The position numbers were made by a program, and so were the translations under genes. Positions 17,612 to 18,867 of a stretch of 64,000 bases of DNA are shown here, one piece after another (within the stretch, counting starts at the first letter, position 1; each line of letters opens with the position of its first letter). Source of the stretch: an uncultured Verrucomicrobiae bacterium (GTDB lineage Bacteria > Verrucomicrobiota > Verrucomicrobiia > Chthoniobacterales > Xiphinematobacteraceae). The DNA lies in contig CAVPNI010000004.1 of NCBI GenBank assembly GCA_963706715.1, positions 224,001-288,000 on the forward strand. The letters are read 5' to 3'. The notes beneath the pieces are model-generated. The model saw only the letters and a list, made by a program, of their open reading frames with translations, was not told where the DNA came from and did no database searches.

Positions 17612-17748
17612 CCTGCCGGAGGACTCCGCGTAAGCGGAGAGCGGCAGGATCAAGGCGACGCTGTATCTCGCGTAAGTTGTGTGATTATCATAGCCAGCAG
17701 GTTACGTGACAGGCCGCTCTTCCCCATTCCTCCGAGCAGAGCGAGGCT
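17612..17748. repeat. Structured non-coding element, copy 2 (truncated by ISL3 fragment)
   Basis: Colinear with 5903-6038. Confidence 0.75.
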
Positions 17749-18154
17749 AATTTTTACTTGCCGAAGAAAATGTCATTTCCATGAGCTTTCTACCAGCATC
17801 TCGGCCTGCCATTCGGAATGCATTTGGACTTGAATCAACTTCGTGTTCTTCGGCGTCAAGGAACGTAATGCAAATATCGCTGAGAGGAGCCTGATTAGAA
17901 ACCAGTAAAACATCGCAAAGACCAAATACCGCTGCCTGTAAATACCCCTCTCCCTCTAACTTTTCTCGCTTTGAATCGTTGATGTTAAAATGCACAGCGA
18001 AACCATCAGAAGGCTCCGCCTTTACTCTTATTCTAGCAAATTCCCAGCGTGGCCCCAGGTGAGTATCACGCAGCCCCTCCGCTTCTATTGTCTTTTGTAA
18101 GACAATAGACTTCCTTTTTATTACATTTTGAGCCCAAGACATAAGATAATCCAT
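17747..18154 (-). CDS. Stand-alone EF-G domain IV-like protein in immunity-gene position
   Basis: QKTIEAEG..EFARIRVKAEP..YLQAAVFGLCDVL..PLSDICITFLDAEEHEVDSSPNAFRMAG follows the EF-G domain IV pattern (YHDVDSSEMAFKIA). Start ATG 18154 or 18142. Confidence 0.75.
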   Translation of the reverse strand: MDYLMSWAQNVIKRKSIVLQKTIEAEGLRDTHLGPRWEFARIRVKAEPSDGFAVHFNINDSKREKLEGEGYLQAAVFGLCDVLLVSNQAPLSDICITFLDAEEHEVDSSPNAFRMAGRDAGRKLMEMTFSSASKN

Positions 18155-18162
18155 AGGTGATT

Positions 18163-18867
18163 TTATAAACCAGAATTGAAGAGGTCTATTGCATCTGGAG
18201 AATATAGTCGTTTTTCGTATCCACGCACATAGGGAATATTCTGCCATTTAAGCGTCTGAAGATGTGCAGGACGTGGCGCAATTCCACGATTCATGAGGGC
18301 TGATTCTTTCAGTTCATGCATATAAAAAGCGATATCGTGATCAGTACGAAGTCCGGAACGCAACCTTTCTAGCATGCGAGCATTTGCAGGATCTTGGAGA
18401 GCCGATCTACCAAATGCATCTTCAAGACCGGGTCTCGAAAGATGTTGTTCAATTCGGACAATACCCTTTCCGGTTACATTCGGCATTCGCATAACCGTCG
18501 TAGCTGGTTTCCCAAACAACGGCTTAACGCCAGCCTTAGCAACATCGCCTATCAAAGGTACAAACGCCAGCCCAGCCATGGCAACCCCTACACTGGTCCT
18601 GATATTCCAACCTTCTGTTCTACCAGCATTAAAAGCGGCTGATAGGTCTCTGATATCGGCGGCCTGTCCAATCCCAGGCACAAAACTCGTTCCTACTTGC
18701 CCGATAAATTTCCCAATAGCTTGCGCTGTGTTACTGGGATTGTAGTCATAACGTAGACGTTCGTTATAACCAGGTCCGAAATAATTAGTAAACGCGAAGC
18801 TTAATCTGGGCAGAAGCAGAACAAGAACTACGAGGAAAGTAAGACGATTAACTAAATTGTGTATCAT
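18163..18867 (-). CDS. Orphan polymorphic toxin (pre-toxin TG-like segment plus HExxE...AH tip), signal-peptide-like N-terminus
   Basis: NTAQAIGKFIGQVG..GDVAKAGVKPLF shared with the main Rhs; tip NARMLERL..FYMHELKE..AHLQTL..LYSPDAI. Confidence 0.75.
   Translation of the reverse strand: MIHNLVNRLTFLVVLVLLLPRLSFAFTNYFGPGYNERLRYDYNPSNTAQAIGKFIGQVGTSFVPGIGQAADIRDLSAAFNAGRTEGWNIRTSVGVAMAGLAFVPLIGDVAKAGVKPLFGKPATTVMRMPNVTGKGIVRIEQHLSRPGLEDAFGRSALQDPANARMLERLRSGLRTDHDIAFYMHELKESALMNRGIAPRPAHLQTLKWQNIPYVRGYEKRLYSPDAIDLFNSGL

Follow-up and report, generated by a model that had tools for sequence, protein, structure and literature searches.

Results

An orphan toxin cassette beside a full-length Rhs gene

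The window, by which we mean the whole 64,000-nt stretch of DNA analysed here, encodes on its reverse strand a full-length Rhs polymorphic toxin, followed by a SUKH-family immunity gene, a shorter toxin open reading frame (ORF), and a small stand-alone gene corresponding to domain IV of the translation elongation factor EF-G (Table 1). An earlier note on this DNA had described a 135-aa ORF at 17747-18154(-), beginning 8 nt after the stop of the short toxin ORF; both the ORF and the gap (18155-18162) were confirmed, and every stretch of protein quoted in that note is present in the translation.

Table 1. Features of the toxin cassette and its Rhs carrier in the window, and partner genes of a related toxin subclade at other loci.
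Feature	Position	Strand	Basis
Full-length Rhs polymorphic toxin, 3259 aa: DUF6531, RHS repeats, C-terminal LHH nuclease	19308..29087	(-)	ORF and Pfam
SUKH-family immunity gene of the main Rhs toxin	18848..19306	(-)	Pfam SUKH_5, E 1.1e-8; ATG and GGAG site
Toxin ORF, 234 aa, bearing YMHELKES...AH	18163..18867	(-)	Translation
Rhs pre-toxin linker	18508..18747	(-)	tblastn against the Rhs gene's end, 52.5% over 80 aa
Toxin tip, 115 aa, all-helical; putative metal-dependent nuclease resembling carocin S3K	18163..18510	(-)	Alignment, model, carocin S3K homology
Stand-alone EF-G domain IV protein, 135 aa; predicted immunity protein	17747..18154	(-)	Pfam, fold, 28 solo homologues, predicted complex
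Loop I equivalent, T31-W37, THLGPRW (= E. coli EF-G 506-512)	18044..18064	(-)	Interface list, EF-G mapping, loop numbering from PMC7749637
Loop II equivalent, H104-S109, HEVDSS (= E. coli EF-G 583-588)	17828..17845	(-)	Interface list and EF-G mapping
175-180-aa partner after 'SPFSVYHP' toxin subclade, locus L120	974..1501	(-)	
175-180-aa partner after 'SPFSVYHP' toxin subclade, locus L109	4321..4863		
175-180-aa partner after 'SPFSVYHP' toxin subclade, locus L114	1689..2099		

Within the toxin ORF, similarity to the end of the Rhs gene upstream is confined to approximately 18508-18747, and this linker region also matches 19710-19780 at the nucleotide level (blastn, 82% over 72 nt). Orphan modules consisting of a linker, a toxin tip and an immunity gene can recombine onto Rhs carriers, which is an established pattern. 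Judged by these alignments, 18508-18747 is likely to be the recombination handle of the orphan cassette, through which its tip might be transferred onto the 3259-aa carrier. The first ~40 codons of the toxin ORF have no Rhs likeness and lie across the end of the SUKH gene, hence the apparent start of the ORF may be incidental. A hydrophobic run in its N-terminus (18790-18867(-)) resembles a signal peptide, and is probably a product of chance: the run coincides with the last part of the SUKH gene, and P0032, a close homologue, lacks it.

Ahead of DUF6531, the Rhs carrier contains a helical repeat region of ~1000 aa, which is unusual, and there is an internal tandem repeat near 20300-20700. A second copy of the end of its core lies at about 11950-12465, and Rhs ends related to it are found on three contigs. 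A single open frame at 11584-13467(-) combines the start of an IS66 transposase, the end of an Rhs core and a toxin tip of no Pfam family, with a 152-aa gene coming after it; at 13948-15401(-) lies a further orphan cassette, whose Rhs linker and tip (14314-14859), the latter lacking a Pfam model, are flanked by two small genes also outside Pfam. An element of ~140 nt, containing inverted repeats, begins at the stop of the solo gene (17612-17754) and recurs at 5903-6044 (93%), with shorter copies at two other places on the contig. A TrwC-type relaxase-helicase at 7684-10212(+) is missing the start of the relaxase profile, and the end of an ISL3 transposase (15720-16868(+)) has copies at about 40 sites across the genome; hence the locus is a mobile, decaying region.

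The solo gene descends from EF-G domain IV

The resemblance to EF-G domain IV, originally read from the order of short motifs, was borne out by profile searches and by the predicted fold. The protein matches Pfam EFG_IV (PF03764) significantly, at 27.5 bits against a cut-off of 24 (E 2.9e-6), and phmmer aligns it with residues 487-591 of T. thermophilus EF-G (E 4.4e-4, ~25% identity). Profile-profile comparison of the solo family with EF-G domain IV, represented by 18 rows of which one (L133) was mis-cut, gave a probability of 97.9 (E 3.5e-13). The AlphaFold model (pLDDT 92) has an additional N-terminal helix, and the matches that Foldseek listed for it were all EF-G (best E 2.3e-10, TM 0.71), while a wide structure search ranked EF-G2, EF-G and TetM (Z 12.1-14.5) above other S5-domain-2-like folds (Fae, Z 8.2). 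The descent of the solo gene from EF-G domain IV is confirmed.

With 135 aa between stops, the ORF is devoid of the GTPase domain and of domains II, III and V, and NCBIfam models of EF-G give it ~20 bits against cut-offs exceeding 500. Its start codon is backed by an N-terminus, M(K)DYL, found across the family, and in its loop I the residues H32, P35 and W37 replace the conserved Q507 and glycines of EF-G. The genome (3.04 Mb, 4 contigs) has two EFG_IV matches, the solo gene and an intact 713-aa EF-G (fusA) elsewhere; the latter groups in a quick tree with the EF-G of a Verrucomicrobiota genome, which makes this the probable phylum of the host. Public sets annotate solo genes of this kind as 'elongation factor EF-G'.

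Solo domains recur behind the same toxin tip

A first family search, covering proteins of 74-237 aa, recovered 28 homologues of 94-169 aa. Pattern scans supplied 25 GTDB loci and the best 80 of 130 metagenome loci; these 105 loci, which were selected by the immunity gene, were dereplicated at 95% identity into 85 groups. The domain-bearing frame spans at most 225 aa from stop to stop in the 105 loci, with six open at a contig edge. In a quick tree of about 140 columns, from which six broken groups and one short group were left out, all 79 solo rows fell on one side of a 99-supported branch separating them from 17 EF-G rows. EFG_IV matches also occur in open frames of ~300 aa at L131 (G408) and L133 (G401), which are possibly GTPase-less C-terminal EF-G proteins or contig-edge pieces.

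The earlier note had suggested a survey of whether solo EFG_IV genes recur downstream of this toxin family, and such recurrence was seen in 31 of the 85 groups, which have the tip directly upstream of the solo gene (24 near-complete, 7 partial). The end of the tip and the start of the solo gene are separated by gaps of about -61 to +26 nt in these linked groups, and no tip match was found elsewhere within the 105 loci. The linked pairs sit on differing carriers, and comprise 8 of the 25 GTDB loci, from Verrucomicrobiota, Planctomycetota, Acidobacteriota, Gammaproteobacteria and a delta proteobacterium, thereby spanning at least four phyla. In 47 of the 85 groups no toxin was detectable upstream; the other seven have less than 350 nt of upstream DNA, and three of these show the C-terminus of a tip at the contig edge. 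In four of five genomes with toxin-less (orphan) copies, no toxin match was found anywhere in the genome.

Toxin and immunity distances correlate weakly (Spearman 0.21, 129/5000 permutations), and the same nearest neighbour was found for both proteins in 12 of 22 cases. A toxin-first search of four samples of 401 genomes produced matches in 1, 2, 3 and 3 of 401 genomes, none of which was a new locus of the toxin subclade to which the window tip belongs; two matches (L118 and L119) were judged spurious, L122 was partial, and one was G406 again.

The toxin tip is related to the killing domain of carocin S3K

The tip is marked by conserved residues H23, N43, R49, D59, H65, E66, E69 and H83 (tip numbering; add 119 for ORF residues), laid out as H-x25-R-x15-HExxE-x13-H in an all-helical model, the last eight residues of which fall below pLDDT 50. 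A tip profile retrieved 978 clusters at E<=0.001, and among the best 146 of these H65, E69 and H83 were each present in 145 and E66 in all 146, with the tip ending no more than 30 aa from the C-terminus in 143/146 relatives. Hence the HELKE...AH motif, which had been suggested to form a metal site, does belong to a conserved pocket (HExxE...H), in which the binding of a metal would be the presumed function of these residues. The carriers of the tip include RHS, TcdB_midN/SpvB, teneurin-like and pyocin proteins.

The tip belongs to no Pfam, PHROGs or NCBIfam family and has no PDB sequence match, and no match to its fold was obtained from the PDB, wide PDB or viral libraries, an unrelated helical protein ranking best (Z 6.0). 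Among viral contigs, none of 27 pattern matches was confirmed, and the tip was not found in phage records. The motif is HExxE...H, not the HExxH of zincins, and no zincin or other peptidase is among the fold matches listed, which is weak evidence on the enzyme's class.

Stepwise searches from the tip reached plasmid bacteriocins, and then carocin S3K (P0311, as named by UniRef). The tip and the carocin killing domain align over the whole domain (hhalign probability 97.2, E 4.2e-11); carocin S3K scores 52 bits with profile A3, and the window tip by itself reaches 10.8 bits against the bacteriocin profile, compared to 4.6 for the best of 1000 shuffles. All eight candidate catalytic residues are identical, corresponding to H778, N788, R794, D809, H815, E816, E819 and H845 of carocin S3K. 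Pyocin S3 and carocin D presumably have this same killing domain. At E<=0.001, carocin S3K-type killing domains were found in 605 proteins, among enterobacterial and Pseudomonas bacteriocins, and neither this domain nor its ~90-aa immunity protein has a Pfam or NCBIfam model.

According to PMC7461348, genomic DNA was degraded by carocin S3K, an activity that its own 90-aa immunity protein blocked. The same paper records that the purified immunity protein alone also cut DNA, hence the evidence for DNase activity is modest to weak. A 2023 review (PMC9990079) lists the killing domain of carocin S3K without an assigned family. By analogy, the tip would most likely be a metal-dependent nuclease of the carocin S3K type (non-HNH), with DNA as its substrate. 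The window tip and carocin S3K lie on opposite sides of a 99-supported branch in the toxin tree, and given this distant link the substrates of the two may differ.

The solo domain is predicted to occupy the toxin pocket

The predicted complex of the tip with the 135-aa protein, a check that the earlier note had proposed, scored 0.82, against 0.00 for the best of three controls; this mark was attained in 116 of 157 solved complexes, and in 2 of 215 mismatched pairs. The runs agree in at least 93% of contacts, with a partner pLDDT of 89, and the model's memory of a similar complex is an unlikely source of this result, since no relative of the toxin was present among the solved structures searched. 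The toxin side of the predicted interface includes the pocket residues H23, N43, H65, E66, E69 and H83. The partner contributes residues 28-37, 105-111 and 114-122, which are the equivalents of EF-G loops I and II and of the helix that follows. The loop I equivalent forms the main predicted contact with the pocket, and E105, V106 and S109 of loop II also lie within the interface. In EF-G itself, loops I and II touch the anticodon loop and the codon backbone, according to PMC7749637.

The predicted interface shares 4/19 residues with host EF-G, compared to 23/89 elsewhere in the protein, and 5/19 with the EF-G consensus, compared to 26/89 elsewhere. The equivalents of Q507 and G512, found in 15/15 EF-G sequences, are mostly H (24/32) and W (16/32) in toxin-linked copies, and those of H583 and D586 are kept in 13/32 and 17/32 of these copies, respectively; R114, R118 and D119 are new invariants (32/32). 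The interface predicted for the immunity protein is not acidic (LRTHLGPRWEVSPNRMRDR), hence the DNA-mimic mode described for Rehh does not apply. Both the binding of the solo protein to the tip and the residues involved are model predictions. Taken with the recurrent tight linkage, they make the solo protein very probably an immunity protein, and it would be expected to protect cells from the toxicity of the tip.

Other partner types and a toxin-less clade

Three types of partner follow the toxin tree: the EFG_IV solos (22 rows), a 175-180-aa family, and a ~90-aa carocin-type immunity protein, unrelated to EFG_IV, at L110-L113, L123 and L124. The toxin at L121 has yet another partner, and at L114 both toxin and partner appear truncated. 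No sequence relationship between the 175-180-aa family and EF-G domain IV was detected by hhalign (probability 2.4% and 0.45%) or by HMM scores, which were within those of shuffles. An Atlas model of a family member, P0336, matches EF-G clusters at TM 0.52-0.54, its Atlas feature neighbour carries EFG_IV in 18% of members, and the toxins linked to this family nest among EFG_IV-linked toxins in an unrooted tree. A relationship in fold to EF-G domain IV can be offered as a lead from these models. The Atlas clusters of the 175-180-aa family are common in Actinomycetota and Cyanobacteriota.

Among the solos, a 27-row clade that includes L010, L011, L015 and L022 has no toxin, comes from Acidobacteriota where named, and sits among varied housekeeping genes. 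It keeps loop II of EF-G (HEVDSS) better than the toxin-linked copies do, with H in 27/27 and D in 25/27. The clade nested within the solos in one quick tree, and a position as sister to EF-G was not rejected (p-AU 0.57, using a quick tree of 51 of the 96 rows and about 140 columns). These copies may be orphan immunity genes, or an ancestral free domain with a separate role.

Discussion

The locus is, in the reading that we favour with fair though far from complete confidence, an orphan toxin-immunity cassette in which a scaffold derived from EF-G domain IV plugs a metal-dependent nuclease, without acting as a decoy of EF-G. The tip would be a small all-helical enzyme, most likely a DNase, with a pocket formed by H23, R49, H65, E66, E69 and H83. 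Domain IV, freed from its GTPase, would have been re-tooled as a 1:1 inhibitor, such that loops I and II, the hairpin and loop that EF-G brings to the decoding site, would enter the active site of the toxin and block it sterically. This is the simplest reading, as the relative of the tip is a reported DNase with an unrelated inhibitor, and the predicted interface is not EF-G-like. Weighing against it are the 47/85 groups without a toxin, the weak correlation between toxin and immunity distances, the distant link to carocin S3K with its weak DNase data, and the lack, among solved structures searched, of a relative of the toxin fold from which its chemistry could be named. The earlier note had proposed instead that the toxin attacks EF-G, or its ribosomal site, and is fooled by a copy of its own target. 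The derivation from EF-G domain IV, the likely role in immunity and the conserved pocket all stand; the attack on EF-G is left unsupported, short of being refuted, by the homology to carocin S3K, by the unrelated ~90-aa immunity protein found there, and by the composition of the interface. A decoy should resemble EF-G most at the interface, whereas the identity to the host protein there is 4/19, against 23/89 elsewhere.

Other explanations of the same partnership were weighed against this one. It is quite improbable that EF-G domain IV is itself what the toxin cleaves or modifies, with HExxE as the site of a zincin-like protease or transferase and a decoy of this target as the immunity protein: the true EF-G ancestry of the solo protein, the retention of HEVDSS in the window copy, and the modelled occupation of the pocket by loops I and II, as a substrate would occupy it, are all consistent with such a system, and a decoy would presumably have to differ from its target to resist turnover, but the pocket residues are identical to those of carocin S3K, the interface is no more similar to EF-G than the rest of the protein is, whether judged by the host sequence (4/19 vs 23/89) or by the consensus (5/19 vs 26/89), and neither zincins nor other peptidases appear among the fold matches listed, for what this weak evidence is worth. 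A nuclease directed at translation, which cuts tRNA anticodon loops or decoding-site RNA, or which depends on EF-G as a cofactor for access to the ribosome, could be held by a solo domain that mimics its substrate or cofactor. The predicted interface consists of exactly loops I and II, the RNA-contacting tip of EF-G; a toxin that hijacks EF-Tu and cuts 23S rRNA is reported in bioRxiv 10.64898/2026.09.18.752725; and the carocin branch is distant, with weak DNase data. The fit between toxin and EF-G domain IV fold also seems persistent, since the partner of a second toxin subclade is likewise EF-G-IV-like in its predicted fold. However, the tip agrees with a reported DNase in each of the eight candidate catalytic residues, the loop residues critical to EF-G are unconserved in toxin-linked copies, and the carocin branch works without any EF-G mimic, making this mechanism unlikely. 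That the toxin is directed at translation in some manner is possible, if doubtful. Similarly tentative is a broader history, in which one branch of the 978-cluster toxin family hits translation, at the codon-anticodon region or by riding EF-G, and is neutralised by a free domain IV from which both the 135-aa and the 175-180-aa families descend, with the toxin-less clade representing standing decoys or the ancestral domain.

The remaining explanations dispense with immunity altogether. The solo domain might have a role of its own, for instance at the ribosome, with its place behind a toxin being unrelated to immunity, as could be argued from the 47/85 groups without a toxin, and from the 27-member clade with its preserved loop II, housekeeping surroundings and p-AU of 0.57 for a join with EF-G. 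Yet stop and start codons overlap or abut with the same tip across phyla and carriers, and the predicted complex forms at the pocket; a separate role may suit the toxin-less clade, but is very improbable for the window copy. Finally, the match to one EF-G domain at ~25% identity, in a region full of IS remnants, might suggest that a copy of fusA reached the Rhs locus by chance and decayed to this fragment. This is scarcely credible, and already largely refuted, as the protein is one of a conserved family that has an N-terminal helix and motifs of its own, with frames of at most 225 aa in 105 loci (six open at a contig edge), on the far side of a 99-supported branch from 17 EF-G rows.

The origins of immunity proteins are mostly unknown, because their ancestry has been erased, whereas here the ancestor is still readable, being one domain of a translation factor that is universal. 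The two loops with which EF-G probes the decoding site are also those predicted to plug the toxin, such that a housekeeping part would have been reused as an antidote. There is also a traceable series, comprising EF-G, the toxin-less solo domain, the toxin-linked solo domain and a diverged second family. The finding connects an unmodelled Rhs tip with the killing domain of carocin S3K and points to the residues of the tip that are likely to be catalytic, and the system offers a cheap test by which a borrowed scaffold could be separated from a target decoy.

This probable immunity family, whose ancestry in a core translation factor can still be read, is real and apparently undescribed. The earlier remark that no characterised example was known agrees with the openly accessible literature covered, including the main texts of bioRxiv preprints, in which no report of an EF-G-derived immunity protein was found. 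Neither 'EF-G' nor 'elongation factor' occurs in the accessible part of Zhang et al. 2012 (PMC3482391), and in the text and supplements of PMC12994826 EF-G appears only as an unrelated neighbour.

Comparison with known systems

Several known systems share parts of this arrangement. Carocin S3K and its immunity protein S3I, of Pectobacterium, together with related S-type-pyocin-domain bacteriocins (non-HNH DNase type), have a homologous killing domain with eight identical pocket residues, and toxin and immunity genes that abut. They differ in using colicin and pyocin translocation domains, not Rhs, in the unrelated ~90-aa immunity protein, and in their separate branch of the toxin tree; Pyocin_S and cloacin translocation domains are absent from the toxin ORF of the window, whose partner is EFG_IV. 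The layout resembles that of Rhs orphan cassettes, with a full Rhs gene (nuclease tip and SUKH) preceding a linker-tip-immunity module homologous to the carrier's end, but neither the tip nor EFG_IV as an immunity protein is represented by a toxin or immunity model in Pfam, NCBIfam or PHROGs.

As described in bioRxiv 10.64898/2026.09.22.753552, Tox-REHH (Rehh/RehhI) combines a metal pocket of His, Glu and Arg, a DNase activity, and several unrelated immunity families that occlude one pocket, features that would also apply to the tip found here. Its own motif is R46-x5-H52E53, H102 and H121 with a beta-hairpin, whereas the window tip is all helical with another order, and its immunity proteins (Imm22, SUKH, CdiI-like and Imm24) act through acidic surfaces, unlike the non-acidic protein found here. 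The identification of the tip as Tox-REHH was rejected on this motif order, the two being set apart by the published motif spacing and not by sequence comparison. SRLase1, an RNase polymorphic toxin that engages a translation factor, provides a precedent (bioRxiv 10.64898/2026.09.18.752725), and differs in its BECR-like fold and its use of EF-Tu; the accessible text mentions neither a decoy nor EF-G domain IV.

A further comparison is that with the domain IV of EF-G, EF-G2 and TetM, which the solo protein resembles in fold (Z 12.1-14.5), in the order of its motifs, in the EP turn, and in the HEVDSS..AF..AG loop II and helix. It differs in having no other EF-G domains, in its extra N-terminal helix, and in the position of its gene behind a toxin. 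Loop I has changed from QxGGRGQ to HLGPRW, and the newly conserved R114, R118 and D119 distinguish the solo protein from the domain of which it is a descendant.
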